Source: Candidatus Omnitrophica bacterium UBA2593 (GTDB taxonomy: Bacteria > Omnitrophota > Gorgyraeia > Gygaellales > UBA2593). From it: 35,758 nucleotides of DNA. Below, one piece after another: positions 1 through 35,758 of the stretch. The first letter of the stretch is position 1, and each line of letters opens with the position of its first letter. A program made the position numbers and the translations under genes. A model generated the notes under the pieces. It was not told the origin of the DNA. It made no database searches and saw only the letters and a program-made list of their open reading frames with translations. The stretch lies in NCBI GenBank assembly GCA_002340085.1, contig DDKR01000153.1:1-35758 (forward strand), written 5' to 3'.

Positions 1-1
1 A

Positions 2-3000
2 GATAAAAATGATAAATTTACTTTCTTCGTCGCACCTACTTTGGATAAAGAGAGTAAGAAAGAGGGTAAAAAAGAAGGAATTACTCGGCCTGATTTTAGC
101 GGGGTTAAGATTAAAGTAGATAAAAACGGCAATGCAATCTGGCAAGGCCGAGCCTCTTTTTATCTTAGCAATTTCTCACCTTATTTTACAGGCTCAATTT
201 CTCAGGATTTAAGGGGTTATTCAGGTTCGGTTTCGGGTGGAAGAGCACCATGGGTGTTTATTTACAATGAGAAAAATGAAAAAATCGGTAATCATACTCT
301 TATGCCTGGTGAATTTGCCTTTGACAGGCAGGGAAATTTATCCAAAGGCGCTTACTACGATAGTCTTTGTAAGAAGGTAATTACTGCAGAGGAGTTAAGA
401 AGCAGGACCGCTGTTTCTCGGAAGGTGGATATCGGAAATTTGAAAAAAGGTGATAAGCTTACTACGACAGATGGTCAGGAACTCGTGGTAGTATTTATTG
501 AGGGTAAAATGACAGCCTTAAGAGACAAAGATAAAAATTACTATCTGTTCTTCAGGGACCGCCTTTATCCTTACAAGGAGGTAAAGAGACGTAGGGAGAT
601 AGCTAAGTTGATTGGAGAAAGAGTAGATATCTTTGACGATAAAAAATTTACAGAAACAGTTACCCGGGCTTTAGGCAAAGGAAAGATTTCTATTCTACCT
701 GACGGAAGCTTTGTTTCTACTAAAGAATTAATGCCGGGCGAGATACGCAGGCCGAATGAATTGTTAAAGCAATATGTAGATGATTTTAAGAAGGGCGCTA
801 TTAAGACAGAAGATAAAAATGTTGAGAAGGTTTATAAGACTATGGCGAAATTAGATGCAGAGCGTAAATTTTTTGGTCGGTGGGGAAACAAGCTCTCGTG
901 GGAGGAGTTAGCTAAAAATGTTGATCGAGAGTCACTAATTAAATTTATTGAACACCGAGGTTATCTGGAGACTTTAAAAGGTAAGGATAATAAGAAGAAT
1001 GCAAGTTTAGGGCCTTGTGTGAAGATACACGCCGAACTTGGTGAAGTTGCGAAAAAGTTAGGTATAGATTTAGAGATGGTTTATGTTGAGGGATTGGAGG
1101 AGCCTCATGTCGCCCTTTATGATCCTGAGAAAAGAAGGATAATCGATGTGACTTATCAGAAAGAATATCCAGATAATGCTATTATAAAATTTAGGGGTAA
1201 AGAGATTAGCTGGGGAGAATTTAAGAAGAATCATAAAGATAATTTTGAGGGATATAAACCTTCTGCTATTTATAGCCAACAACTAGCGCAATTTTATTTA
1301 AAGGTCGGTAATTTAGGAGAGGCAGCAAGATGGGCAGAGAAGGCCTATAGAGAGGATAAAAAGACTAAAGAGTTAGCAGATATCTTTAATAATTTAGGTA
1401 ATGCTTATGGCAGGAAAGAAGGACTTTTTGTTGAACCGAAAAGAGAATTTTTTCAGCTCTTACACTGTTATAAAAGAGCAAGGGAGTTATATAAGTTAGA
1501 GGGAGATAATGAGAGAGCTGCCAAACTTAGTGAGTTAATCAAATTTCTTGATGCACACAGCACAGTTCCTACTCTTCACTTTGACCACAAGAATGGCTGT
1601 TATGTGTCTCGGATAATAGAGGAAGAATATTCTCATAGGCCTCTGCCCAAAAAAGAGGAAGAAGGCTATCTAATTAGCCCTTTAATTAACAACTTAAAGA
1701 AAACACTTCCCGAAGGAGCAGAACTAGAACTTAATAGTAATGGTAATAGTAATGGTAAAGGAATGGAGGCATTCATTAGAAAAGAAGGAGAAAGATATAA
1801 GGTTCTTCCCGATTCTATAAAAGGAGCAGATGGTAAGGAGTATAGATTAGTTTGCAATGCGAAGAACGGAAAAGATATATATTTCTTTGATGGGGAGAAA
1901 AAGAAATTACTCCCAGAAGTTAAGGTAGGAGAGATAGGAGGAATGAACTTATGCTTAAAGACAGAAACTGATAGTAATGGTGTTGCAGGGATAGTAGAAG
2001 TCTTAGAAAGAGGAAGAGGCGAAAAGAAAGAAAGATTCAATGTTTTAGTTTCTATGAGGTCAGATGGAGGCAGCAATGCTGTATTAGTAGAAAATGAGAA
2101 AGGTAGGTATATTGTAAGCGAAGACGGAAGATTATCAAAGGTTAAGACTTATGCGGGAGGACTTATTATTGATGAGAAGGAAAGAATATGGAATTTAGAG
2201 GAGAAGAGGGAGGTTGTAAGAGAATTTGCAAGTCATAAGGCATCGGTGTTGCAAGTTATTAGTGAGTTGGTAGGGAAGGCAACTATGAAGGAGGATGGTC
2301 CTGTCGCTTCTCGCCGGCACGAAATTATCAGTAGATTAAATGAGCTAAGTGGCCTGGTGGGGAAGAGTAAGAGTAAAGAAGAATTTACTTCTGTAATACA
2401 GGAGATCCAGCTCTTTGAAAAAGTTCTTAATGCTGCAGATAAAGCACAAGAGAAGATGAAAGAGTCATGGGAGCGTACCTGTATGGAACGGGAGACAGGG
2501 ATTTCCTTAGAATCAGAGAGGTTAATGGAGGAAGGGGGAAGGCTTAATGTCTCTGCTATTGAGGCTATTTCATTCCTCTTAGAGAGAAAGTATTCAGAAG
2601 CTCAAAAGATAATGAACGATCCTCAGCTCCAGAAAGATTTGTGTGATACACCAATTAAAGTAGATTGGGATAAGAGTGGTGCTATCCAGCGGCTTAGAGT
2701 GGTACTTTGGGCTGCTCCTATATTATCAAAGGAGGGAGGTAATCTTCGTTCCCAAGCTATACAATTGAAAAAGGAAGCTATCCATTATTCGGTGGGAGGA
2801 TTTTTGGGGGTGCCAGTAGCTCTTGGTACCTATCTACCCGAAGGAGCGGCTAGTCTGGGTAGATGGTTTCGTCATCCGGTGAGATCAACACACGATGTAG
2901 TTGATGGTATTTATAACTTAGGCTCAGGGATATGGGGATTGGTTAAAAAAGAAGGTGTTGGTGGGGCTATTGGAGAGATAGCACGCCAGACCGAAGGGGC

Positions 3001-6000
3001 AATCAGGCAGGCAGATTCCTTAGATATGGCTCTCTTTGGTGCTGAACTATTGGGTGAGATTCTCGCTGCTAAGGGATTAGCCAAGGGATGTTCTATAATA
3101 GGGAATAGCGGCAAAGTAGAGAATTTTTTGGGAAGGGCAGGGAATTGGATAGTTAAGCCTATAGTTGAGTCTAGGAGAATACAGCAGATTTCGAGCACTA
3201 CACGTATACTTACTAATAAACGTATACTTACTAATAATAAAGTAGTTAATCTACTCCGTAATAAATTGCAAGTCGATAAGGTATCAAATGTACTAGGAAA
3301 AGCTGTAAAAGCTTCACCTGGGGTTCCTCAGGGAGTAATAAGGTGGATAGGCAGTACCTCTAATACTTACTCTTATATGCTTCCTTCTATGGTGGGAGTT
3401 GGTATTATCCATGACTGCTTCACGGGGAATATTTCTCTTAGCCAAGCAATATTCAAACAGTATGAGAATCTTCCCCAGACTAAAAGTCAGGCCTTAGGAT
3501 TTAGTGCGGCGTTTGCTTTAGGAGGAAAGATTTTTGGTCCTATTCATTCTAAGATTTCCTCTCTTTCTAAGATTTCCTCTCATACTTCTCAACTTTCTCC
3601 TACTGCTCAGTGTGCTGCTCAGCGTGTTGCTCAGCGTGTTGCTCAGTGGACGATCAAAACCACCTCTTTCTTGACGCTTAACCACGGCCTTCCTAATGCA
3701 GTTTCTCTACTTACTACCGGCCAACCGCTTTCCTTAGAGACAAATGCAGTGTTGTTAGTCTCCGGACTTATTGGTTGGGGTTTAGGTAAAGGAGTCTTTA
3801 TTAATTCTGCCAGTAAAATAACAGATATAGGGTTACTTCATAGCTTAGGAAGAGCAAGTCTTACTACCTTAGGAAATTTCTGTCTGCTCAATAGCATAGA
3901 TTATGCAGTCAATACAGTGATGCATAAGGTACAGACTGGCCAAGACTTGGGACTTGGAGGGCTAAAAGAAGTATGGTGGAGTAAACATACTTTGGGGAAT
4001 TTAGCTATTAGTGCAGGATTTGCTGGATTAGCTGAGATAGCTAGAGTATCTTATGTAGCAAAAGAAGTGCGCGAAGTTAAAAAGATAATAAAAGAATTTA
4101 ATATAATAAATCCAAAAGATTTTAAAGGTAATTTAGATAATTTGGTAACTGCTTTAGAAAAAGAAGGGATTTCTCCTCAGGTGCTAGAGAGGTTAGATAA
4201 GTTTAAGGTAGTACATGGAGGAAAGGAAAAGAGCTTATTAGATTTATTAGGGGAACAAGGAGTAGTTCCATTAAAAAAGTTAAGGATAGTAGGTACTGAA
4301 TATAGTGCTACAGATGCTCTCAGGACATTGAGGATTGACGAAAAGATATGGGGGGAATTAGTAAATAATCCCTCATTAAAAAGTGCTATAAACGCATTTC
4401 GGAACACCAAGGTAGCAGGAAACAATCTTTTTGATAGAGTAATGGGCTTTGTCAGAGATTCAGGAGCTTTACCTACTACACAAGCTTTAGAACTTGCTAT
4501 AAGAAATAAATTGAACTTGAAGTTTTTTGATTGGACAGCCAAAATATATTCTTCGAAATGGACAAGAGGAGGTGCGTATGTGTTGACAGGTACAGGAGTT
4601 AATCTAACCATAAAGACAGCAAGAAATTTCTTCTCTGAAGATTCTTCTACCAAAGGAGATCTCTTTAAATCTTTAAGAGAAGCTTTTACTCTGGGAAATC
4701 TAACTGAAGGAGCCTTCTTTGGTTTAGCCGCACTATATCCTCTTCAAAAATTCCAGGTCAAGATACCAACACTACCCGATGGGTCCCTAAAACCTGATTG
4801 GATAAGCCGGGTACTCGAAAAAGGAGCAAAGCTTACTCAGGATAAAGGAAGATTCGGACAACCTATTGCTCGTCTTTGTAAAGAAAAGTTATTAGCGAGA
4901 GATCTGGAGAAAATATTGAAGGCAGATAGTTATGTTTGGCGCATTTCTCAATGGGGATTTTTTAAGAAATTTTCCTATGGTGCAACAATAGGAGCCCTGG
5001 GAGAAGGTATTGGTTACACTATCGATGCTTATCGAAGAGGTGATTTCTCTTTATATGAGTTGCGTAACTCCTCAGCTAAAGGAGGTATTGCTGGAGGGCT
5101 CATTACCTGGTGGTTAGGAGGCCTTTTGGGGAGTCTTTCTTCTAACTTTTCAGCAATTACCGGAAGGAGAGAAGAAGAGATTATTGCCTTACATCGCTTC
5201 AAGTTAGGAGGTGGAGCCCATACTGGACCGAGTTGGCTCTATTACCAGTCCTTAGCCGGAGCATTAGACTGGCTTTTAGTCTCTCCTCTCTTTACTATTG
5301 GAGGAAGTTTTTATAATGGTTTACTTTCCCAATCAGGATGGGAATTTAAAGATGCTTCTGGTAAGCAAATTAAAGGTTGGTTGATTACTGGTGATGAACG
5401 CCAAGGTTTTCATCACTTAACTCCACAAGATTTAGTGCTCTCTTCTATCCAGGGACCTTCTTCTGGTAAATGGATGAAGCCACTCTTTCGTTTTACCGGG
5501 GTACAGAGCTACAGATATTCTTTTCAAGGAGGAATAGTAGAGAAATTAGATAGGTATAGAAGAGTAGTCAAAGAATATTTCTCAAAGGATTGGGGACGAG
5601 GATCCCAAGGAATTACTTGGTCAGAAGCAGTAGTAAAGCAAATCTTTGCCGGGATGGAACCTACTAAAGGGTTTGTTTCTTTTTTGCGTTGGTTTGATTC
5701 CTCAATACTTACAACACCTCTGGTAGTTAAGACCGCTGATTTCGGCTTAAAAGTTGCCGAGAAAACATTGCTTTCTCCTAAAGGAAGAGGTTTCTCTGAT
5801 TTTAGTCGGAATTGTCTCTCTTTTATCGTCCTCTTTGCTAGAAGCCATCCCTCCCACCAGGCAACGAAGGAATTGAGGGCTCTCTATCAACAGTACAAAG
5901 ATGCAGAGAGAAATATCCAGAAGAGTAATAACGCAATGGGTGAGAAATCTAAGGTTCTTGCTTTAACCGCACTCTCCAGAGATATGCGTATGCCTTTAGA

Positions 6001-27000: not shown

Positions 27001-30000
27001 TGTTGGGTTTGTTAAGGTTGGTTTGGTCTTTAATCCTCAGCAAAACTCAAGGAAAGATGAGCTTGACGAGACTGGAGTTGGAGCTGAGATTAAAGAATTA
27101 ATTGATAAGTTTGGGAGAGTGTTGGAGGAAGTTCTAATAGGGAGAGGAGATAAATATTCTGAAGATATTTTTGCTGAGCAGTCTGAGGTAGCTTTATTGG
27201 TTCAGTCTACAAAGCAAGTAGTAGAGATTGCTTGTTCTAAAGGTAAGACATATATCTTAGCTTTAGCAGCTCTAATCAAATACCGTACAACGGGTATTCC
27301 TTCCTTGGCCTTTGTTCCTGCTTTTGGTTTAGGTTTAGATGCCTTTGAGAAACACAGGATACATCAGATATTAGGTAAGGTTGATCCTAATTTTAAGGTG
27401 GGTTTGGTAGATTTTGCTGAGGGAAAGGGTAAAATCTATGATGGGGATGGCGAATGGAGAGAAGTTAGTATAGCTGAAGTTTATAGCAAGTGTGGTTTGG
27501 TCTATAGTACAGTAGAAGATACAGTGCATAATTATTTAAGCGAGCATCTATCCCGAGAAGATAGAGACTTAGCTTTAATTACTCGCAAATGGTGGGTATT
27601 CTTTGATGAAGTGCATTTGACTTTGTTGGGTGAGCGCTTAGGAAACCCATTTGTTATCTCTGAGATGACCAAGCAATATTCAGAAGTTGTAGAAGAAGCC
27701 AATGATATAGCAAGAGAACTTTATGAGTTAGTGGAAAAAAATGGGGCTCTTCTGAAGAGCGAATATCATAGGATAGATGAGAAGGATAGGAAGGTAAAAC
27801 TTACTAGAATAGGAAGTAAATTTGTAAAAGAAAGACTTAAAAAGACAAAGTTATTGAGAAATCGGGGTAATTGGAAAGACTTTGTAGATACTGCCTTATG
27901 TGCTTGGTTCTGTTATAAAGAAGGTAGAGATTATCTTCATAATCCTGGTTTACCAGAGGGAGAAGAGATTTCCATCATTAGAGAGAGTGGAGAGAGAGGA
28001 AAAGAATCTTACAGCCATGGTTTACATCAGGCAATTCGTGCTAAACACGGCTATAACCCATTCAGAGATGGAAAGACTATTGCCTCAATTATGTTAATGG
28101 GTTTCCTAAGTGATCTGGAAGTGGTAGAAGGTTACTCAGGAGTGAGCGGGACCATAGATAGAGAAATGGCAAATGCTTTAGGATTAGGGGTTCAGATTAT
28201 TGAAGAAAAAGAGAAGCCAAATATCGTTCAAGAAGGATTTATTCGGATGTCAGTAAAACCAGATATTCAAGGATTGGTAGAGATTGTAGTAGAAAAAGTT
28301 AAGAGAGGACAGCCGGTTTTAATAAGGGTAGAAGATATTTCTCGGGTTGAAAAGGTAAAGGAAGCTTTAAAGGTAGAAGGCCTGGAGATAGAAGTGAAGA
28401 GTTTAGATGCCAGGACTGAAGCTGGTGAGAGACAGAGAATCCTTGAGAGTGCAGGTAAACCAGGAGCAGTTACTGTTGTTACTGCTGCGGGCAATACAGG
28501 TATAGATATCAGTCTTATGGAAGAAGCGATTGAGAAAGGCGGTTTGACAGTTATAGCGTTTGGCCTCTTGGAAGACAGATTGCAAGAGATACAACTGATG
28601 CGACGGGCAGCAAGGAGGGGAGAACCGGGAGAGTTTATTGTTTTCGGTTCACTTGAAGATAGAGTAGTAAGGCTTTATGCTAAGGATTATATCCCGGTGG
28701 CTAAAGGAATTTTAGAGAGAGCAGCAAAAGGTGATAGAAAAGCTCAGATTAAAGTTAGAAAAGTGGTTATGCAATTGCGTAAGACAATTAAAGATGCGAG
28801 ACTTCAACAGATCAGAAGGAGAGTTAAGATAGAGCAAATGATTACCCAAGCTTGGCAGAGGCGTTGTAATTTGAGAGAGAACATTAAGAATGGTTTGCTG
28901 GTAGAGGCTGTGGCGAAACTGATCGGTGTAGAGTTGAATGAGGAGAAGAAAGAGCAATATCAACAAGCAGCTTTAGAATTACTAGATAGGTATTGGGTTG
29001 AGTTTATTGCACGGTGCGATGAAGCAAGATATCAGCTGCTCAATAGATTTGGTTATGATTACACAGAGTGTCAAGGTATTCTGCAATTTCCAGTTGATTC
29101 GCAGTATATGAAAGAGGTAGGTAGATACACCGACGAGTTTATGTATTATACAGAAGCTAATACTTTCCTCTATATGTTGAAAGAAGCAGGAAAGAGTTTA
29201 GATGATTTGAATCTTAAGAGATCCTTCATTTACTGGTTTAAGAGAGTAAGGAATTTTGTTGTCCAAAAAAGTCCAGTTGTTATAGCTGCTGTAATTTTAT
29301 CCTTTGTAGTCTATGGGTTATACCGTCTGAGTTTTGGTTTATTTGGGCTTATCTCAACTCCTACACAACCCTCTGGTTTTGCCCGGGTTTTGATTGATTT
29401 TATTGTTAGTCTGTCTGCTCTTAATCAGGTATCATTGGTTGCAATCATAGTGATTGCGATGGTCTTTCTCTTATTCATTAATCGCAACCTTATCTTTCCG
29501 GCTTTAGCTAAAGACAGAAGCGAAAACTCGTTATCCGATGCTCTGTTTGGAATAAAGACAGAAAACCAGAATTTGACTTCATTCTCCCTCGCAGTTTACA
29601 AGAAGGTCTATCCAGTTATTGCACAGATTAGTACAGGAGTATCTCTAGTTATATTCGGCTTGTCTATTTTCACTGGTAGTAATTTGCTACTGAGTACAGT
29701 AGCATTTATCTCTATCTTCGCTTTAGGACTAGCTTTAATTACTTTGAGTGATTCAGGGTTAAAGGCATATATAAGACAAAATAGGATTTCTCTGCCATCT
29801 ACCTTGTTTGGGAGTTACGCTTACTATTTTGCTTTTAGTATCTTGGTTTATCTGGGAGTAATCTTTGGATTAGGTTATTTTGGCATTACTCCTGTGGTTA
29901 TGGATATGAGTATCTATTTGAGTATAGTTATCTTAGGGGGTGGGCTCCTTGCTTATTTCATCTATATGATGAATCAGTATTTGGATAGACGGTTTAATGA

Positions 30001-33000
30001 TAAACCCAAGGAAGTAGAACGAGATGTCGCTTTTGCTGGCATATTAGGAAGTGGTGCTTTGGCGGGCTTACTTATACATCTCCAAGAGATGGAATTACTT
30101 ACCCCTAATACTATTTCTACTATTTACGCTTCAATTTGGCCGGCGGTTCAGTTAACTGTAATATTAATGTTTCCACTCGCCTTGGTTGTTTTAGGTAAAC
30201 TTATTTTTGGTATTACGCGTGCTCAGATGTTGGGTGAAAAGATAGTAGAAAATGACGGTGTGGTTTTGAAGAGAGGTTTTTCGGAGAGTGTAAGGGAAGT
30301 CTTAAGATTAAAGCATATCAAGACTTGTATTGGTGTGGTTTTACGGGCGTTGATAATAAACATTATTCCTACCAGTATTATTTTTGGTGGTCTGCTTTTC
30401 TTATGGAAGATCTATACTGATACAAATATCGCCTTGGGGCTATTAAATACAATTACTCCTTACTCTTTAATAATAGCAGGAGTTGTTTTGATTATAATTT
30501 TAGCAACTTTAGCATTTAGTCCTAAAAAGGTAAGTGTAGCAACTGGTACAGTGTTAGGTGTGGGTGCAGTAGGGGGTATGACTATGGTTCAACAACAGAC
30601 AGGGCAAATGATCGAATTTAAAGCCTATTGTGCTGAACTCTTCGGAATTTCTAGAGAAGAATTTAAAGATCCGCGGGTAAGGATAGCCGTAGAAGAAATG
30701 AGAAAAGAGATAGAAAGATTAAAATCAGCCACTAATGATTCTTCTAAGTCCGGAAGAACTACTACAGCTGGAGGTACGCAAGGTAATCAGACTACAAATG
30801 ATCCAGATAAGACTGAATCATCTAAAGTTAACTTACAAGAGCCTCCAAGAGGGGGAAAGATTGAACCACTGAAAGAAGGTCCAGGTAATACCTTCTCAAA
30901 AGAAAATCCTCACAATAAATCTCCACCAAAATCTCAAAGTAAATCCTTCCTACAAAAACTCACTTCTTCTCTCAAAGAGAGTTTGAATTCTTTGAGTAAT
31001 CTTTTCATACCTTCTCTTAATGCTGAAGAAATAGATAACTTCCACAGCACCAGAGTTTATACTGAGAATACCACCCCAGGAGTGGAAAGAGAAGATTGTC
31101 TTTCTTTACAAGAGCCAGTTAAATGGCATCTTCCAATTAAAGTTCCTTATACTCTAACCAATGAAGGTAAATTTGGTGCTTCCAGAGATAGAGATGAACT
31201 TAGTGAACCAGGTTACGGTAAGCCAGATGAGATACCTCATACTGGCCTTGACTTCTGTGTTCCAAAAGGAACGCCTATATATGCAGCTTTAGAAGGCGTG
31301 GTTATCTTTAGCGGTGAACTTAATGGCTATGGAAAGACAATAATCATCAAGCATTCAGAGGGATGTTATACCTTATATGCTCATAATCAGGAAAATTTAG
31401 CTAGAGAAGGAGAGAAAGTCTCTCAGGAGACAGTGATTGCTAAAGTCGGCCGGAGTGGTAATGCGGGACAAGTTGGAGAGATGCTTCATTTTGAAGTAAT
31501 AGAGTCAGAGGTTGAGCTAAGTAATTATCAGGGATTAAGAGAGACATTGGCTACGGGAAAAGCAAAATATCGCAATCCTGAGGAGGTATTGGGATTGACT
31601 ATTTCTGATCGGGTAGTGGAAAATGGTGATTTAACCTCAACATTAGAAGAAAAAGCGGAAAGCTTGAGGGAACTTTTGAATTCAGGAATAGAATATTACA
31701 ATCAAGGAGATTTTAAGACTGCTATAACGATTTTCAGTGAAGGCATTAATTTAAACCCTTCCTTCTCTGAGGGGTATTTTTGGCGAGGAGCTACTTATTA
31801 TCATTTAAAGCAGTATTATGAAATGATAGAGGATTTTAAAAGATCTGAAGAGGTTAAAGAGACCAAACGGGAAATAGTATCTTCTTACACAAAAGGAGAA
31901 ATTCTTATATATAATAGTGGTAGAGTTCTTGAGGGAGGAGATCTCCAAATCAAATCAGAAGAGTTATTTTCGAACTATTTATTTTCGAGTGTTTTAATTG
32001 AAGATGCTAAAAAATGGATAGAGAGACTAGAATCAGCTCGTCTTCAAAGTAATATTTCTAAACCAGAGGAGAAAGAAGGGCCGGTTATTTTCGTATTGGA
32101 TAAAGGTGTGAATGCAGATCTTGTTGGGGGTTCAATTAAAGGTATAGGGAATAAAGGAGATTTAATAACCTGGTTAAGTCATGGCACTTTTGTAGCAAAG
32201 GTTATTCGTGATCTGTCTTCAGCTGAGATTATATCTATTGACATAACGAGACAATCAAAGACAGGCCCCCTTTTCGTTACAGATACAAAGAAGATTTCCC
32301 AATCTCTGATTCAGATACTCGCCTATATGAAAGAGAATCCCAGGGTAAAGGTAATAGTAAATATTTCTTTCAGTGGATCTTTTGGAGACTTCAATGATCT
32401 TTTAGATGTAGTCTTAATGCAAGCTATTATCCAACAAGGTGGAGTTATTGTTGCAGGCGCAGGGAATGAGGGCACTTCTTTATCTCGAATATCCAGGTAT
32501 CCTGTTTGTTATCCGGGTGTTATTGGGGTAGGCGCGATTAAAAAATCAGGAAACAAGGCCGATTATAGCAATTGGTCTAATGGCCTTCTCGTTGCTCCTG
32601 GGTGGATTAATGGGAGTGAGGAATGGAAAAATTTAACCAAAGAAGAGTACGGATGCGATATTGAAGAAATATATGGTACTTCCTTTAGTGCTCCTTATGT
32701 TGCTGGTCTAATTGCTAAGATATGCGAAGAATTTGGGTTCACACCTCAGCAGGCATATAAGATTATTGAAGAGACTGCAGAGCCTTTAAAAGTTTTTGAT
32801 AATTCCCCGAATTATTTCTTGAAAAAAGTTGATCCTTTCCGAGCATTAAAAAGAGCAAGAGAAGAGAAATATTCCAAACCCGCATTGGAAAGGGTCGGAT
32901 CATTATTTAATTTTCTCTTTCCACCACCTCTTTATGCTACAGGAGTAGATAATTCAACTACTACAGAACAACCTAATCTTAATTTCAAACCCGTATCGGA

Positions 33001-35758
33001 AAAGGTTGGATTAATTTATGGAAAAGAAGGATTCTATGAGAGCGAGAAAGAAGGACTGATAAATGGTAAGAAATATAGAGTGATTGTCATAGAGCCTCTC
33101 AAGGAACAGCCGGTTACCCCGCAAGATGGTCAATTTAAGACAAGAGATGATTCTGGGAATCCCAAGGGTCTTAACAAATCTTCTTTAGATCTATTTGTTC
33201 AAAAGCAGGTCTCTAGAGTTTTAGATAAAAGCGCAATTTCTCACAAACCTTCTGGAATTGCTCCTAAAACCGGTCTTTCTCCACCAAAGGAAGAGACAAG
33301 AGGTATAAACCGCTACTTAAGTTCATTAGTTGAATCTATAGTTAATATAACCAAATCTCTACTCAATCCTTTTGTATCTTCTCTTTATGCTGAAGAAGAA
33401 ATTAGTTCCTTCCGAGACACTTCTGTGAAGACACAGCCCATGAGTAAGTCATACAGAAAAGATCAAAACCATCCTCCCACTCCGGGAGTGGAGAATAAAG
33501 GTTGTCCTCAAAATTCGGACAAAGAGCAAGCCATTATATCACCAGAAGAAAAGTTTACCAGTATTGAGGGAGCATTAAAGGCAATCGGTGGACCCTATAA
33601 TCTACAAGCAATGCACTTCTTAAAAGAGAATTTACCTAAATTAGATCCCAGTGATCCAGGAAGAGAAGCAGCTGTTGAGATGCTCATAACCTACATTGCT
33701 GAAGAGCAAACCATAAAAGCTCAGATAGAAAAACTTAGAGAAGAGTTAAGTTTAAAATATGAGGGAGAAGCAGTAAAGGCAGCTAAAAAGGGAGATTATC
33801 AAAAGGCATTTAAATTCTTTGATATAGCTCTGCAATTAGATTCAAAAAATAAATTTGTATATTATTATCGAGGAGAGATCTTGCGTTCTTTGGGTTGGTT
33901 TGAAGAAGGTCTCAGAGATCATCTAAAAGTAATTGAGATAGATCCTAGAGATCCAGAAGTATATCGCCATATTACTCAAACTTATAAAGCAATGAGAGAA
34001 TATGAAAAAGCTATTTTCTATTTAAAGAAGATGATGGAATTATTAGATTCTGAAGAGAACTTCGATTATAACCAGTATCTCTATACTGAGTATTATAGAG
34101 GAGAGCATCCTTTCGTAGATTGGTCAAATTCTATCAAAAGATTACAATTTATCGAGATGTGGAGAACATCTTTAGCTAATCTTTATGCATTGAAAGGTGA
34201 TTATGAGAAGGCAATTGAGGAATACAATAAAATACTTTCCAGATGGTCTGATTATTTTGAAGCTCTTAACGGAAGAGCTATAGTTTATTTTAAGATAGGT
34301 GAATATGAGAAAGGGTTAAGAGATTATGAAGAATTGAAGGAGAGGAGATTAGAGGTCTTTCCTGACTTGGATGAATCGGTCAGTAAGTACCTTAAAGAGA
34401 AAGGTTGGTATCGTCTCGAAAGAGAATTGATGAAAATTATTGAAGAGCCGCGAAGGTTCATCCAGAGTTTAATTCAAGTTTTAAAGGACAAGGTAGATGT
34501 AGTAATTATAGACAGTCTACAGAGATGGGTTGAGGTGTGTCAGGAAAAAGGAGTGAAATCACAAGCAGCATTCTATGACAACAGAGACAATAAGATATAC
34601 ATCTATGTGGGATATGTTCAGGCGGTTGTCTTGGCTCATGAAGTAGTCCACAGTCTCCAAGCCAAATACTTAGAAGGAGATGTAACTGTTGAAAATAATC
34701 CTATCATAGAGATTTTTAACAAGATTCATAATTTGGTTTATCAGACAGAAGATTCAGATTTGATAGCTGGATTAGATGCTATCATACATTATCTCTATTA
34801 TGATCATAACAATCCTCTTAAAGATATTTGGTATGCTTATCGGCAAGGCCATCTAACTTATGAACAGGCAACGGAATCTCTTTTGGAGTTGTTTGGAGGG
34901 AAGATAGAGGAAGAATCTATTAAGGAAATTTTAATGACTTCTGAGGAAGAAAAGATAAACCGGATGTTAGAGAAAAATTTTAAGTTATATATTTCGGCGA
35001 TTGATGAATTTCTTGCCTATGTATATAGCTCAGCTGTAAATTATGATGTACCACTTATCAACAGATTAAGTGGGGAGGAAGCCCAGAAGCTTGCGCAGAG
35101 TGGCTACATTCATCCTTCTTCTAAAAGAATTGATATCAATGCGGCAACAGTATGGTTTTTGAACAAAATTCAGCAGTATCCCGAGATTAAAGATACTTTA
35201 AGAGATTATTATGAGAAAATACTAGGCCTACCTCTTCCTTCCATAATTAGTCTAGAGCTGCTCTCCTCTACGATAGAGAGTCATTTACCTGGACCTGTGG
35301 CTTATGATATTTTCCCACTTTACCATCCTAAAGGGAATCTAGTCTCTCACCGGCTCAGTTCAATCCCAGATCAAATTCCTATTAGAAGCAACCTTCCAAC
35401 TTCTTTTGGCTTCTTTGATAATTCACCTAAGTATCAAACGATTAAAGAAGCAATTTCTCAAGCAGAGGAGATAATAACCGTACCAGAAGCTAGTAAGAGA
35501 TTACCTGTAGATGGTAAAGAGGTATCAGTAAGATACTTTGTTCTTCCTTTCTTAGGTAAAAGAGCACCTCCAGTATTTGTCCACGCAAAGTTTGAAGAAG
35601 ACATTTTAAAGATCTATTTTTCACGGGATACCTTCAAATTGTTCTCTGAACACTTTAAAGGAAAACCCCTGACTACTGTTCTCCTTGCAATTGCCCGCCA
35701 CGAATATGCAGAACTTGTAGAAGGAAAATCCCATCAAGAAGCAATCCAAGCACAGGAA
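2..35758 (+). CDS. Single uninterrupted giant ORF (frame 2), truncated by both window edges; 11,919 codons of a multi-domain, membrane-anchored giant protein
   Basis: Manual codon-by-codon translation of frame 2 over every line found only sense codons. The supplied ORF track (which accepts ATG/GTG/TTG starts) lists no frame-2 ORF, as expected if frame 2 never reaches a stop. Every recognisable protein motif in the window lies in this frame. Confidence 0.9.
980..1170 (+). other. Domain in giant ORF: possible transglutaminase-like / papain-fold cysteine peptidase core
   Basis: Peptide NASLGPCVKIHAELGEVAKKLGIDLEMVYVEGLEEPHVALYDPEKRRIIDVT. Cys codon 1016-1018, His 1106-1108 and Asp 1145-1147 have the order and spacing typical of transglutaminase-core proteins. 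Motif-level recognition only. Confidence 0.35.
1271..1550 (+). other. Domain in giant ORF: TPR-like helical repeats
   Basis: LAQFYLKVGNLGEAARWAEKAYREDKKTKELADIFNNLGNAYGRKEG ... LLHCYKRARELYKLEGDNERAAKLSELIKFL shows the small/large residue pattern of TPR hairpins. Confidence 0.45.
3203..3238 (+). repeat. In-frame 18-nt tandem duplication (RILTNK/RILTNN)
   Basis: cgtatacttactaataaa followed immediately by cgtatacttactaataat; 17 of 18 nt identical. Confidence 0.9.
3548..3583 (+). repeat. In-frame 18-nt tandem duplication (SKISSL/SKISSH)
   Basis: tctaagatttcctct occurs at 3548-3562 and again at 3566-3580, a period of 18 nt. Confidence 0.9.
3605..3649 (+). repeat. In-frame 12-nt tandem repeat, about 3.75 units (AQCA AQRV AQRV AQW)
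   Basis: gctcagtgtgct gctcagcgtgtt gctcagcgtgtt gctcagtgg read directly from the sequence. Confidence 0.9.
5880..9300 (+). other. Region in giant ORF: long Lys/Glu/Arg-rich, probably alpha-helical / coiled-coil spacer
   Basis: The translation is dominated by K, E, R, Q, L and A with heptad-like spacing (e.g. KQEVRQMREERKSKGEIKQAIQQKKKDIKEMG). No catalytic motifs were recognised. Confidence 0.4.
9560..11150 (+). other. Domain in giant ORF: SecA-like / DEAD-box-like ATPase motor, copy 1
   Basis: Walker A: VMASGKTLLGTMAL (SGKT 9611-9622). GISLYLTKNTPLVKQ...FGLKL parallels SecA GVHVVTVNDYLA...LGLSV. Walker B: LVVIDEGQNIFLN (DEGQ 9971-9982). Second RecA-like lobe: GKIIIGTLNLVKEGLNFGEGIDIY ... 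LQGFARNNRIKKGDMVYFFYSPREL, resembling SecA VTIATNMAGRGTDI ... [23 protein letters not shown]. Confidence 0.6.
15840..16100 (+). other. Domain in giant ORF: minimal zincin-like module with HExxH (HEIKH)
   Basis: YYSPTTSAYYVETKGTILYREGRNAWIRLHEIKHALDD. HEIKH is encoded at 15941-15955, preceded by a beta-strand-like stretch as in small HExxH metallopeptidases. Confidence 0.35.
17234..17299 (+). repeat. In-frame 15-nt tandem repeat x4 (IAELN), organised as a 33-nt super-repeat
   Basis: atagcagagctcaac / atagcagaacttaac / aga / atagcagagctcaac / atagcagagcttaac. Confidence 0.9.
17735..17900 (+). other. Domain in giant ORF: LysM peptidoglycan-binding domain
   Basis: IYTVKPGDSLWKLAKEHFGDGSDWRKILELNPQL...LTGEERIIIQP matches the LysM consensus YtVk.GDtLw.IA...yGdg..w..I...N. 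A hydrophobic helix (SIIIGLLLLSLLPL, ~17610-17650) precedes it. Confidence 0.7.
17990..20120 (+). other. Region in giant ORF: membrane-embedded block with at least 8 hydrophobic helices
   Basis: Helix-length hydrophobic runs include WIGKVLSLVLGFAPFPLGIILP, YSIISIPALFNMVALSLLNFI, LGVLEMALGALLLAMM, IIAQNLAVIAVIILAILG, IFGGVSLAILGLLFIATLVGIAYIIF, VAICTCSILLFLLLGTLGWL, IVDFITLTVTLSLFTLFPLFL and ILFVIVISFKLLV. Confidence 0.6.
19380..19775 (+). other. Domain in giant ORF: isoprenylcysteine carboxyl / phospholipid methyltransferase-like (ICMT/PEMT family) C-terminal core
   Basis: LKTQGVYGYSRNPLYTLYLLLAAIL ... LPKEEGELLSKFEEAYKEYKEKVPRFV matches the family signature G.Y...R(H/N)P.Y ... EE..L...FG..Y..Y...V.R..P, and sits inside transmembrane helices. 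Confidence 0.55.
20459..20740 (+). other. Domain in giant ORF: CheD-like (chemoreceptor glutamine deamidase fold) Cys/His module
   Basis: VVIIQGEWAVTSATDENYKLATWGLGSCIGVLIYNPTTKIAAITHVDF parallels the CheD N-terminus IGIGEYAV...TLGLGSCVAVC..D...K.G..AHVMLP. The candidate catalytic Cys codon is 20540-20542. Confidence 0.55.
21130..21300 (+). other. Region in giant ORF: hydrophobic helical hairpin preceding hairpin-element copy 1
   Basis: IGGIGSLVSTVLATILLPALIPLAIIAGLSSIISGLIV ... ISLPFLFGL. Confidence 0.5.
21326..21393 (+). promoter_or_regulatory. Conserved intragenic RNA hairpin, copy 1 (22 bp, 21-nt loop containing ACCUCC)
   Basis: Pairs: 21326-32 with 21387-93; 21334-37 with 21383-86 (A21333 bulged); 21340-50 with 21372-82 (G21338 and U21339 bulged). 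Loop is uccuaaccuccaggauggccc. GGAGGU at 21401-21406 is complementary to loop ACCUCC at 21356-21361. Confidence 0.6.
21412..21705 (+). CDS. Nested 97-aa ORF in the -1 frame (window frame 1), fully overlapping the giant ORF; unknown function
   Basis: Listed in the ORF track. GGAGGU lies 5 nt upstream of the ATG. A paralogue at 23449-23736 differs mostly at third codon positions of this frame (24 synonymous versus 8 replacement codons in the first 91). The globular-looking sequence MCPIKFDKLQFDHIVEFTNDNTIFAAARQN...VYCRNGCADSWEQL...IPVYRING has no family I can name. Confidence 0.6.
   Translation: MCPIKFDKLQFDHIVEFTNDNTIFAAARQNSSHNSNGHLRLFLINQSTGNVYCRNGCADSWEQLRGSTRDTVIAQLIAARNNHIPVYRINGGGLQSD
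22250..22285 (+). repeat. Perfect in-frame 18-nt tandem duplication (KVTSLG x2)
   Basis: aaagttacatctcttggg occurs at 22250-22267 and is repeated exactly at 22268-22285. Confidence 0.95.
22380..22700 (+). other. Domain in giant ORF: minimal zincin-like module with HExxH (HEIAH)
   Basis: IIRANRELVFGGKEIEKDRNIKFFSGTIAHEIAHIIAYWPIEVREVDEFFADL. HEIAH is encoded at 22529-22543. Confidence 0.4.
23366..23433 (+). promoter_or_regulatory. Conserved intragenic RNA hairpin, copy 2
   Basis: Same fold as copy 1, exactly 2040 nt (680 codons) downstream. The only internal substitution (U21374 to C23414) turns a G.U wobble into a G-C pair. GGAGGU at 23438-23443 follows the hairpin. Confidence 0.6.
23449..23736 (+). 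CDS. Nested 95-aa ORF in the -1 frame, paralogue of 21412-21705; unknown function
   Basis: This is the inner part of track ORF 23329-23736. The ATG at 23449 is homologous to the copy-1 start and keeps the same GGAGGUGCAUU-AUG context. The ORF ends at TAG 23734-23736, and the giant frame 2 remains open throughout. Confidence 0.6.
   Translation: MCSIKFDKLQFDHIVEFTNDNTIFAAARQNGGYNGNGHLRLFLINQSTGNVYCRNGCADSWEQLTGSTRDTVIAHLIAAKNNHIPVYRINGKSQQ
23770..24120 (+). other. Domain in giant ORF: possible degenerate receiver/flavodoxin-like fold
   Basis: The alternating strand/helix pattern HILVFGPEH ... FQLLIIDG ... RPRIIILCSKD ... KIVFVED resembles CheY-like receivers, but the acidic pocket is not evident. 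Confidence 0.25.
23924..23947 (+). repeat. Perfect in-frame 12-nt tandem duplication (VTLS x2)
   Basis: gttacattaagt occurs at 23924-23935 and is repeated at 23936-23947. Confidence 0.95.
24250..24620 (+). repeat. About 125-aa transmembrane module, copy A (paralogue of 25480-25860)
   Basis: MGSLGGSILSLSFLYLPWPVVRGFFFSAGLRKYLALFTRSPSLTFACL...PPILRATVAVVLGLMAFVVIWERLAVLNLQETAPVNLPITT aligns with copy B along its whole length. Confidence 0.8.
24533..24603 (+). promoter_or_regulatory. Conserved intragenic RNA hairpin, copy 3
   Basis: Pairs: 24533-40 with 24596-603; 24543-47 with 24590-94; 24550-57 with 24582-89. Loop is uccuaaaccuccaggagacggccc. GGAGGU lies at 24611-24616. The -1-frame stop UAA (24604-24606) abuts the 3' end. 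Confidence 0.55.
25480..25860 (+). repeat. About 125-aa transmembrane module, copy B
   Basis: IVGLLGGILGFFYLTWLVGRKSIFPAGLEKYLALLIHSPPLTFSCL...PPILRATVTVVLGLMAFVVIWERLVALTSRMAPANLPITT. The last ~115 nt are nearly identical to copy A, while the first part is clearly more diverged. Confidence 0.8.
25775..25842 (+). promoter_or_regulatory. Conserved intragenic RNA hairpin, copy 4
   Basis: Pairs: 25775-82 with 25835-42; 25785-89 with 25829-33; 25792-99 with 25821-28. Loop is ccuuaaccuccaggauggccc. GGAGGA lies at 25847-25852. The -1-frame stop UGA (25843-25845) abuts the 3' end. Confidence 0.55.
26340..26680 (+). other. Domain in giant ORF: lytic transglycosylase (SLT / goose-type lysozyme-like)
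   Basis: GLPSGIMGAIIRAEMFG (candidate catalytic Glu codon 26384-26386) ... TSIGPTQVRIDT ... DDKFALEAGAKYIQWLVKKMG ... RLWVAYTAGH follows the SLT pattern ES ... GLMQ ... N...G..YL ... AYNAG. Confidence 0.65.
27170..28680 (+). other. Domain in giant ORF: SecA-like ATPase motor, copy 2
   Basis: VEIACSKGKTYILALAAL (GKT 27242-27250). FFDEVHLTLLGERLGNPFVIS (DEVH 27605-27616) resembles SecA [33 protein letters not shown] (28019-28036) resembles SecA GLHQAIEAKEG. GQPVLIRVEDISRVEKV...LDARTEAGERQRILESAGKPGAVTVVTAAGNTGIDISL resembles GQPVLVGT.SIE.SE...LNAK....EA.IIA.AG..GAVTIATNMAGRGTDI.L. GGLTVIAFGLLEDRLQEIQLMRRAARRGEPGEFIVFGSLEDRVVRLY resembles [47 protein letters not shown]. Confidence 0.8.
29275..30590 (+). 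other. Region in giant ORF: polytopic membrane domain with about 10-11 transmembrane helices
   Basis: Consecutive ~20-residue hydrophobic runs include VIAAVILSFVVYGLY, LVAIIVIAMVFLLFI, GVSLVIFGLSIFTG, VAFISIFALGLALITL, YYFAFSILVYLGVIFGLGYF, IYLSIVILGGGLLAYFIYMM, FAGILGSGALAGLLI, VQLTVILMFPLALVVLGKLIFGI, ALIINIIPTSIIFGGLLFLW, LIIAGVVLIIILATLAF and TVLGVGAVGGMTMV. Confidence 0.7.
31120..31600 (+). other. Domain in giant ORF: M23 (LytM/lysostaphin-type) metallo-endopeptidase
   Basis: IPHTGLDFCVPKGTPIYAALEGVVIFSGELNGYGKTIIIKHSEGCYTLYAHNQENLAREGEKVSQETVIAKVGRSGNAGQVGEMLHFEVIE. The HxxxD motif starts with His codon 31238-31240, and the LHFE motif contains His codon 31487-31489. Classic M23 order and spacing. 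Confidence 0.85.
31650..31850 (+). other. Domain in giant ORF: TPR repeats
   Basis: LLNSGIEYYNQGDFKTAITIFSEGINLNPSFSEGYFWRGATYYHLKQYYEMIEDFKRS. Confidence 0.65.
32080..32790 (+). other. Domain in giant ORF: S8 subtilisin-like serine peptidase
   Basis: Asp in VIFVLDKGVN (32099-32101), His in SHGTFVAKVI (32180-32182), oxyanion Asn in VAGAGNEG, and Ser in YGTSFSAPYVAGLIAK (32681-32683). This is the canonical D-H-N-S order. Confidence 0.8.
33740..34340 (+). other. Domain in giant ORF: TPR repeat array (about 5-6 repeats)
   Basis: GEAVKAAKKGDYQKAFKFFDIALQLDSKNKFVYYYRGEILRSLGWFEEGLRDHLKVIEIDPRDPEVYRHITQTYKAMREYEKAIFYLKKM ... LANLYALKGDYEKAIEEYNKILS ... ALNGRAIVYFKIGEYEKGLRDYEEL. Confidence 0.75.
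34540..34900 (+). other. Domain in giant ORF: minimal zincin-like module with HExxH (HEVVH)
   Basis: AAFYDNRDNKIYIYVGYVQAVVLAHEVVHSLQAKY. HEVVH is encoded at 34637-34651, in the same strand-then-HExxH layout as the modules at 15.9 and 22.5 kb. Confidence 0.4.

Follow-up and report, generated by a model that had tools for sequence, protein, structure and literature searches.

What a single reading frame that stays open across 35.7 kb of DNA encodes, and whether it belongs to one real gene, is the question raised by contig DDKR01000153.1 of assembly GCA_002340085.1, of which we analysed a stretch of 35,758 nucleotides (positions 1 to 35,758 of the forward strand; referred to below as the window). 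Frame +2 of the window runs from 2 to 35758 on the plus strand as 11,919 consecutive sense codons, and we conclude that the window very probably is a genuine inner piece, encoding 11,919 amino acids (aa) or more, of a single very large membrane-protein gene of the Omnitrophota type. Translation of the window revealed no stop of any kind in this frame (TAA: 0; TAG: 0; TGA: 0), as an earlier prediction made on this DNA (hereafter the original prediction) had stated, in comparison to 1107 and 1088 stops in frames +1 and +3, and 796, 457, and 905 stops in the three minus-strand frames. The longest open stretches in these five other frames reached only 69–188 codons, with a stop about every 11–26 codons, and exactly four plus-strand open reading frames (ORFs) of at least 60 aa were found outside frame 2, the same number as predicted (21412–21705, 23329–23736, 24397–24606, and 27900–28097). 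With this base composition, any one codon is a stop with a chance of 0.073, and the probability of meeting zero stops in 11,919 codons is ~1e-394. As also predicted, neither the start nor the stop of the gene is in view: no stop is present at either edge of the window, indicating that the gene is cut at both ends and is therefore at least 35,757 nt long. Quantification of base usage revealed that codon position 1 of frame 2 was the G-richest position in 23 of 23 consecutive 1.5-kb segments (0.24–0.41, compared to 0.10–0.23 at positions 2 and 3), and the coding signal is therefore unbroken from the first base to the last. The GC content of the window is 38% and its composition is uniform along its length; codon counts in frame 2 were heavy in AGA, AAA/AAG, and GAA/GAG, which agrees with the AGA/AAG/GAA-heavy usage described before.

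We also looked for signals of genes inside the frame. In positions 1–20000 of the window there were 38 promoter-like sites (shuffled sequence: 45.3 ± 7.5) and 16 terminator-like sites (shuffled sequence: 15.8 ± 3.6). A Shine-Dalgarno-like motif preceded 5 of the 149 in-frame ATG codons (3.4%; background: 7.2%). Since none of these signals was enriched, we rejected the possibility that the frame is a row of separate internal genes. No tRNA genes or Rfam features were found across the window. Recoding of stop codons is a superfluous assumption, because frame 2 holds no stop codon to recode. On the opposite strand, frame -2 contained 457 stops in comparison to 796–1107 in the other non-coding frames, and it gave most of the spurious ORFs, which begin with TTG or GTG and are up to 185 aa long. 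Openness of this kind on the antisense strand commonly accompanies a long coding frame and does not mark a gene.

The 3' end of the window could be compared to a close relative, Logan contig 97 of SRR6487262 (2,658 bp; L002; a literature search for this sample gave no paper), whose DNA is 90.5% identical to window positions 33455–35120 and whose protein is 76–78% identical to aa 11092–11706. This common module (33275..35119, plus strand) consists of a TPR array, detected by Pfam and PDB (aa ~11262–11444), and a region with the motif AHEVVH at aa 11546. In the window it is followed by the last module in view (aa 11707–11919, 213 aa; 35120..35758, plus strand), in which we found no recognisable domain. 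A codon alignment of the two sequences (605 codons) gave a dS of 0.238, a dN of 0.134, and a dN/dS of 0.56 (sub-blocks: 0.37–0.66). When the 255 nucleotide differences were placed at random, 9.7 stops were expected and none of 5,000 trials was free of stops (P<1/5000), yet no stop is observed in either sequence over the alignment. A dN/dS of 0.56 and the absence of nonsense changes therefore show that the amino acids are loosely constrained or fast-evolving, while the integrity of the frame is under selection. The ratio is unusually high for a bacterial coding region, yet it is below 1. Together with the zero stops and the continuous periodicity, the lack of nonsense changes in comparison to L002 upholds the earlier claim that frame 2 is a translated frame and not one that is open by chance.

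Outside the common module the two sequences have different content. On the 5' side of the module, L002 carries an unrelated trypsin-like S1 protease module in place of the window sequence. On the 3' side, a TAG in L002 stands exactly where the similarity ends (window 35120/35121), 23 nt from the end of that contig, and the window is open at this point and continues with other sequence. L002 also contains an in-frame TGA at L002:631–633, in the middle of the S1 protease domain between its His/Asp part (TNAHVV...DIAIL) and GDSGAP, which may reflect recoding, a pseudogene, or a mistake in sequencing or assembly. The TAG belongs to L002, not to the window, and is no refutation of the open frame; it marks the likeliest place for an assembly chimera, if there is any. 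Since L002 stops at the end of the module, module junctions can be gene boundaries in related genomes; they behave like borders of recombination or of genes, which is compatible with module shuffling and with gene growth by in-frame fusion.

Relatives of the N-terminal half were few. Using aa 3001–4500 (1,500 aa without any Pfam match) as a query, we obtained one match among 5.8 billion proteins, a partial protein of 2,018 aa encoded by a 6,054-bp contig from a Candidatus Omnitrophica metagenome-assembled genome (MAG), which aligned to 99% of the query with 33% identity. HMMER, run exhaustively with a profile built from two sequences over aa 3150–4200, recovered only 15 proteins among 1.84 billion representatives. 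The relatives are partial proteins that fill whole contigs (e.g., 7,780 aa on 23,352 bp), and the GC content of their contigs is 36–39%, compared to 38% in the window. BLASTP of seven of them (P0142, P0141, P0136, P0122, P0123, P0126, and P0121) against the window protein revealed colinear matches over aa 1512–5228 at 22–41% identity, which defines a conserved core (4535..15685, plus strand). By name, all core relatives come from Candidatus Omnitrophota or Omnitrophica MAGs except P0123, which is labelled only "[bacterium]"; those that carry a phylum name are the 12 members of the P0122 cluster, P0121, and P0126. Several relatives are annotated as "isoprenylcysteine carboxylmethyltransferase family" and one as "DEAD/DEAH box helicase [bacterium]". 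On the evidence of homologues and of the names of their sources, an Omnitrophota origin, which had been suggested before, is the best-supported reading and probably correct, and the architecture described below is as published for this phylum. Scans for related loci with three alignments, one for each collection, found nothing among genomes (GTDB species representatives), metagenome contigs, and viral contigs, and a protein search with the SecA region of the second motor described below returned only canonical SecA at ~30% identity and no giant relatives.

The visible product is a mosaic of a transmembrane (TM)-poor N-terminal part with the core and a first motor, a polytopic middle part, and a C-terminal part with M23, S8, and TPR domains. 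The M23, S8, LysM, and TPR domains and one SecA motor, all named in the original prediction, scored above their Pfam thresholds. A second SecA-like motor was borne out by motifs and a structure model and was missed by Pfam, so that we assign it with moderate confidence, and the CheD-like and isoprenylcysteine methyltransferase (ICMT)-like modules gave weak but consistent signals at the level of a superfamily or a motif and could not be assigned to a family. A predicted SLT lytic transglycosylase was found by no method and is rejected: neither a PF01464-type domain nor its ES...GLMQ...AYNAG motifs were matched in Pfam (1000-aa and short pieces), PDB sequences, or motif scans, nor was there a match in NCBIfam (aa 1–10,000) or PHROGs (all but aa 3001–4269 and 9001–10173).

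The SecA motor with the clearest signal, motor 2, lies at aa 9070–9597 (27209..28792, plus strand) and comprises part of the first nucleotide-binding domain (NBD1), the preprotein cross-linking domain (PPXD), and the second nucleotide-binding domain (NBD2), as judged by Pfam, a SecA hidden Markov model (HMM), and PDB sequences. Pfam SecA_DEAD, SecA_PP_bind, P-loop_SecA, and Helicase_C all scored above cutoff, the first three at aa 9159–9540; the SecA HMM matched with E=3e-52 over profile positions 94–586, and SecA in PDB with E=8e-31. The motor aligns to SecA residues ~95–640 at ~28–30% identity and carries the motifs CSKGKT, FFDEVH, and RRAARRGEPG (motif VI), with the PPXD in its canonical place; the Walker A motif CSKGKT is one residue short of the spacing in the canonical P-loop GxxGxGKT, and motif II reads DEVH, compared to DEVD in canonical SecA. 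The first ~95 residues of SecA, the helical scaffold domain (HSD), the helical wing domain (HWD), and the C-terminal domain (CTD) are missing, and predicted TM helices flank the motor at 8968–9004 and 9751–9782. A canonical SecA, with the full order NBD1-PPXD-NBD2-HSD-HWD-CTD above cutoff, is rejected, as the NCBIfam SecA model reached 148.8 bits against a cutoff of 862, the match covers only SecA positions ~95–650, and HSD, HWD, and CTD are absent. By its sequence, motor 2 is an unambiguous SecA derivative, for which ATPase activity is predicted.

The other motor, motor 1, is probably a very divergent SecA-like superfamily 2 (SF2) ATPase at aa ~3195–3700 (9584..11101, plus strand), within the conserved core. 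It went unseen by Pfam, by the SecA profile HMM, and by self-BLAST of the window protein, and it surfaced only through the alignment with P0121 and the structure model. The motifs in common with P0121 are MAxGKT (3202–3207), DExQN (3324–3328), LSGT (3523–3526), and LQxFxRxNR (3689–3697), which read ASGKT, DEGQN, SGT, and QGFARNNR in the window. The core residues DE.QN, S.T, and Q...R.NR are invariant in six relatives, in which Walker A reads xGK[TS]. In SecA, the preprotein cross-linking domain sits between motifs II and III, and the spacing of the motifs in motor 1 is as in SecA, including an insert of ~200 aa at this position. An hhalign comparison with SecA gave weak matches, with all motifs in colinear order at E=0.017 and the second RecA lobe at E=0.0013; in NCBIfam, a fragment of RecG matched with E=0.004. 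We built an AlphaFold2 model from six sequences (mean predicted local distance difference test score, pLDDT: 60.7) and compared it with known structures using Foldseek. The top 20 PDB matches were all SecA or SecA2 (E=1e-11 to 3e-8; probability 1.0), ranking ahead of helicases of the Dicer, XPD, Hef, and RIG-I types. Motifs and model together suggest, with moderate confidence, that motor 1 is a SecA-like SF2 ATPase.

Around motor 1, the N-terminal part of the protein is poor in recognisable features. From aa 1 to ~6000 it is nearly free of strong hydrophobic segments in the hydropathy scan; N-terminal to the LysM domain there was no Pfam match above threshold and no notable match in NCBIfam, PHROG, or PDB sequences, and the PDB sequence search of aa 1–8500 gave nothing at E<=0.1. 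A hydrophobic stretch at aa 4244–4277 (12731..12832, plus strand), found in the Kyte-Doolittle scan and hydrophobic in P0121 as well, may form one TM helix or a hairpin. We also observed that aa ~1000–1950 (window 2999–5851) are Gly/Ala/Leu-rich and moderately hydrophobic, with few charged residues and a hydropathy below the TM threshold; parts of it are conserved in P0142 and P0126, and it may associate with the membrane or be amphipathic. The best-conserved block of the core, aa 4667–5228 (14000..15685, plus strand), is 41% identical to P0142 and carries the motif RHE(I)LGH...GIPLGE..GYN.TE, with RHE(I)LGH at aa ~4998–5066 (window 14990–15200). Its model (pLDDT 52) shows a five-strand sheet ahead of the HEILGH helix; we obtained no PDB sequence match for the block and no significant Foldseek match for the model.

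A motif scan of the whole protein revealed three canonical HExxH motifs, compared to ~0.13 expected by chance: RLHEIKHAL at aa 5314 (15941–15955, plus strand), IAHEIAHII at aa 7510 (22529–22543, plus strand), and LAHEVVHSL at aa 11546 (34637–34651, plus strand), the last reading AHEAVH in L002. These sites and RHE(I)LGH may mark cryptic zincin-like protease modules. A firm zincin identity was rejected for the HE(I)LGH block and for the three HExxH sites, which find no support in Pfam, PDB profiles, or Foldseek and stay at the level of a motif.

At the start of the middle part (aa ~5865–10180), a LysM domain at aa 5914–5947 (17741..17842, plus strand) was detected by Pfam (PF01476; E=6e-8, 32.9 bits vs. 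a cutoff of 20.9), by NCBIfam LysM (E=9e-7), and by a PHROG endolysin profile (E=2.6e-11). It precedes a polytopic region with soluble loops, aa 6004–10180 (18011..30541, plus strand), which holds 44 of the ~46 TM helices predicted in the whole protein, i.e., ~1 per 260 aa. These helices come from a crude Kyte-Doolittle predictor and not from TMHMM or DeepTMHMM. When the helices were parsed in order, LysM and M23 came to lie across the membrane from the two motors and the CheD-like module, which would be the biologically expected arrangement, although one miscounted helix flips the sides.

Two enzyme-like modules lie within the polytopic region. The signature of ICMT and PEMT is RHPxY ... EExxL...Y..Y...V.R in a multi-TM segment. 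In the window, an ICMT/PEMT-like integral-membrane methyltransferase module at aa ~6457–6615 (19370..19846, plus strand) reads SRNPLY...EEGELLSKFEEAYKEYKEKVPRF within a cluster of TM helices, and it was matched by NCBIfam isoprenylcysteine methyltransferase (E=3.5e-4; 20.5 bits vs. a cutoff of 160; profile positions 111–187 of 190), by phrog_26245 (E=3.5e-8), and, below cutoff, by Pfam PEMT (18.5 bits vs. 25). A homologous module follows the core on its 3' side in P0142 (27% identity, pairwise E=3e-7), so that the order of core and ICMT-like module is kept. A CheD/NTAN1-like deamidase module at aa 6816–6884 (20447..20653, plus strand) carries a GLGSC...H motif; Pfam N_Asn_amidohyd, matching at profile positions 8–76 of 270, reached 25.6 bits on a 181-aa piece (cutoff: 24) and 22–23 bits on longer pieces, and NCBIfam CheD models matched with E=7.5e-5 to 8e-4 at 23 bits, far below their equivalog cutoff of ~240. 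Judged from these scores, the module bears a superfamily-level resemblance and is not a CheD orthologue.

Parts of the membrane region are duplicated. A TM-containing unit occurs as copy A at aa ~7099–7223 (21277..21683, plus strand) and copy B at aa ~7779–7902 (23317..23720, plus strand), marked by the DNA repeats D1/D2; the copies lie ~2040 nt apart and are 87–91% identical as DNA and 74% identical as protein in self-BLASTP. A second duplicated TM unit (aa 7981–8200 and 8395–8613; 23942..25840, plus strand) is 43% identical in self-BLASTP and is marked by the DNA repeats D3/D4; its duplicated pair was noted at 24286–24563 and 25504–25805. The longest DNA repeats measure 289 and 116 nt at 87–91% identity; long near-identical repeats are absent, and tandem repeats are trivial. 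The sequence of these units indicates local tandem-like expansion of membrane segments.

Downstream of the polytopic region, an M23 peptidase domain at aa 10412–10503 (31235..31510, plus strand) was identified by Pfam (PF01551; E=5e-26, 91.2 bits vs. a cutoff of 28.7), with further matches to M23 structures in PDB and to PHROG endolysins and peptidases. It retains H10413 and D10417 (HTGLD) and H10461 (YAH); the HxH motif reads M10494-L-H10496 (window 31481–31489), so that the full catalytic set of HxxxD, middle His, and HxH is incomplete, with the first His of HxH changed to Met. A short TPR stretch follows at aa 10558–10620 (31673..31861, plus strand; Pfam TPR_1 and TPR_11), and next to it an S8 subtilase domain at aa ~10695–10929 (32084..32788, plus strand; Pfam PF00082, E=2e-18, 67.3 bits vs. 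a cutoff of 21.8), which also matched PDB subtilisins and a PHROG protease (E=8e-24). The candidate triad is D10700, H10727, and S10894 with N10822 as oxyanion residue, in the contexts VLD(10700)KG, H(10727)GTF, GTS(10894)FS, and GAGN(10822)EG; the Asp was assigned by position only. Going by these residues, the subtilase is apparently catalytically intact.

How such a protein would work can be outlined from these parts. The two ATPase motors would stay in the cytoplasm, tethered by the adjoining TM helices instead of by the missing SecA scaffold and wing, and would use ATP to thread neighbouring segments of their own chain, or partner proteins, across or into the membrane. Threading would bring the LysM, M23, and S8 modules to the outer face, where they could bind and cleave the peptidoglycan or the surface proteins of another cell, either host or prey, or reshape the envelope of the cell that makes them; in addition, the giant precursor may be processed into pieces by the proteases that it contains. 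The same mechanism was proposed for this class of proteins by West-Roberts et al. (2023; 10.1101/2023.11.21.568195). For the window protein, we hold this outline of cytoplasmic motors, threading, and outer-face LysM, M23, and S8 modules to be tentative, with a chance of being right that comes close to even at best.

Several observations weigh against the conclusion that the window is part of one very large Omnitrophota-type membrane-protein gene, or against parts of it. Neither end of the gene is visible in the window, and the translation of the frame is read from its sequence. An exact 53-mer (window 128–180) had no match in the GTDB species-representative genomes, JGI metagenome contigs, or IMG/VR. 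The taxonomy is drawn from MAG fragments of 22–41% identity and from source names, not from marker genes. A module that is internal to the window ends at a stop in L002, and junctions between modules can thus be gene boundaries in relatives. The positive-inside count runs in the wrong direction (63 against 51), leaving the topology unsupported. The model of motor 1 is of moderate confidence (pLDDT 61), with a TM-score of ~0.2, which is as expected because the model is flexible, multi-domain, and of modest confidence. Lastly, because one catalytic His is lost (MLH), the M23 domain may bind rather than cut, and it may have become an enzyme of reduced activity or a dLytM-like module with a regulatory role.

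Among other explanations, the one that survives best is that the gene encodes a polyprotein, i.e., that one chain is translated and the working units are smaller proteins freed by the embedded proteases (S8 and possibly the HExxH modules). The apparently intact catalytic residues of S8 and the excess of HExxH motifs over chance speak for it, the stop that ends the module aa 11092–11706 in the 90%-identical L002 suggests that modules can work alone, and West-Roberts et al. (2023; 10.1101/2023.11.21.568195) raise the same possibility. On the other hand, cleavage sites are not known, neither a protease family nor a protease fold was matched by the HExxH modules, and the TM helices between modules would hold most of the pieces in the membrane. 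We regard processing of this kind as possible but rather unlikely; it is compatible with the reading of the window as one giant membrane protein and does not exclude it. Clearly less probable is an origin in another lineage, be it another phylum of the Planctomycetes–Verrucomicrobia–Chlamydiae (PVC) group, Elusimicrobiota, Actinobacteriota, or a similar group with large SecA genes, or acquisition of the gene by horizontal transfer. The low identity of the relatives, the one labelled merely "[bacterium]", and the lack of a relative among GTDB species representatives leave room for it, and published reports describe large truncated-SecA proteins from Actinobacteriota as well, and proteins of >=10,000 aa from other PVC phyla; however, every relative with a phylum name is from Omnitrophota or Omnitrophica, and GC content and architecture fit Omnitrophota. 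Least probable of all, and very unlikely, is a chimeric or mis-joined metagenomic contig made of pieces of several genes or strains: the missing 53-mer, the different flanks of the common module in L002, by which junctions vary between strains, and the repeats ~2 kb apart at 21277–23720, which could mislead short-read assemblers, fit such an artefact, but random joins would not hold one frame open over 11,919 codons, the core is colinear with several independently assembled MAG fragments, P0142 has the ICMT-like module in the same order, composition and codon periodicity are uniform, and the repeats are short (<= 289 nt) and diverged.

Taking the window as a fragment of one very large Omnitrophota-type gene, we compared its product with known systems. 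West-Roberts et al. (2023; 10.1101/2023.11.21.568195) define proteins of >10,000 aa (ORF >30,000 bp) as large and those of >=30,000 aa (>=90,000 bp) as giant, and found them to be commonest in Omnitrophota, with many TM regions and with divergent SecA DEAD and preprotein-binding domains that come without scaffold and wing. Such Omnitrophota proteins also carry C39 or S8 peptidases, TPR, and cell-wall-directed or -degrading domains (West-Roberts et al., 2023; Nielsen and Lui, 2026). Nielsen and Lui (2026; 10.64898/2026.06.07.730766) counted 3,650 proteins of >=10,000 aa in one corpus, found one or more of them in 93.8% of complete Omnitrophota genomes, and give the reason for which only truncated pieces appear in MAGs; a membrane-anchored architecture has been published for 94% of 916 long Omnitrophota proteins. 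In view of these numbers, the earlier statement that genes of this size are very rare is true in general and out of date within Omnitrophota, where about 94% of complete genomes have proteins of >=10,000 aa. With at least 11,919 aa visible, the window protein passes the limit for large, and its visible part is shorter than the limit for giant.

The window protein shares with these Omnitrophota proteins an ORF of tens of kb, many TM helices, Pfam-dark stretches, and fast evolution, as well as SecA_DEAD and preprotein-binding domains without scaffold and wing beside TM anchors, S8, TPR, a methyltransferase-type module, and peptidoglycan-directed domains, and relatives that appear in MAGs only as contig-truncated pieces. 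It is therefore a further member of an already described group and no new class of system. It differs from the published members in having two SecA-like motors of very different divergence and a core with only the 15 relatives given above. Text searches found no mention of M23 or LysM, both present in the window, in West-Roberts et al. (2023) or Nielsen and Lui (2026), and none of CheD in West-Roberts et al. (2023), while a CheD/NTAN1-like module is present here. As for the Archaeovorin subtype of West-Roberts et al. (2023), the window has M23 and S8 peptidases and the ICMT-like module, and the Pfam and NCBIfam scans detected no glycosyltransferase, glycoside hydrolase, or NUDIX domain in it; the parts of the gene that lie outside the window could carry these three, so that the protein is at most a possible member of this subtype. 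TSP3 and dockerin domains were likewise not found in the window. The Dockerin-type subtype was rejected, as PF00404 and PF18884 were matched in no Pfam scan.

Compared to SecA and SecA2, motor 2 shares the Walker A-like, DEVH, and arginine-finger motifs and the preprotein cross-linking domain, and the model of motor 1 is structurally closest to SecA. In contrast to SecA and SecA2, both motors sit inside a giant polytopic protein, and the first ~95 residues of SecA are missing, as are its scaffold, wing, and C-terminal domains. Their Walker A motifs are atypical (SKGKT in motor 2 and ASGKT in motor 1, vs. GEGKT in SecA), and they would be tethered by TM helices of their own chain rather than by docking of a scaffold on SecYEG. 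Similarly, the combination of LysM and an M23 fold with the Zn-binding motif HxxxD in one protein resembles secreted M23/LysM peptidoglycan hydrolases and their degenerate activators (LytM, ShyA, EnvC, NlpD, and DipM). Unlike in those proteins, LysM and M23 are ~4,500 residues apart with dozens of TM helices between them, and HxH has Met in place of its first His.

A broader reading links the core and motor 1 to a rare sub-family of Omnitrophota giant proteins, in which two separately evolved SecA motors would each insert or export their own section of the chain and the genes would grow by in-frame capture of neighbours at module borders. Such capture is suggested by L002, in which a stop terminates the module that lies within the frame here and the flanks are different. 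We consider this linked pair of ideas speculative and unlikely to hold in full.

What the window adds is a further, well-documented example of a very large membrane protein from Omnitrophota, a group that may live by episymbiosis or predation and may export its own megadalton chains. It indicates that one chain can carry two SecA-derived motors, one of which would be recognisable only by structure prediction and conserved motifs, and it defines a conserved core of ~3,700 aa that is almost without relatives in public data. The comparison of the window with L002 further shows that the integrity of the frame is selected while the protein evolves fast, and that the borders of modules can coincide with gene ends in close relatives.

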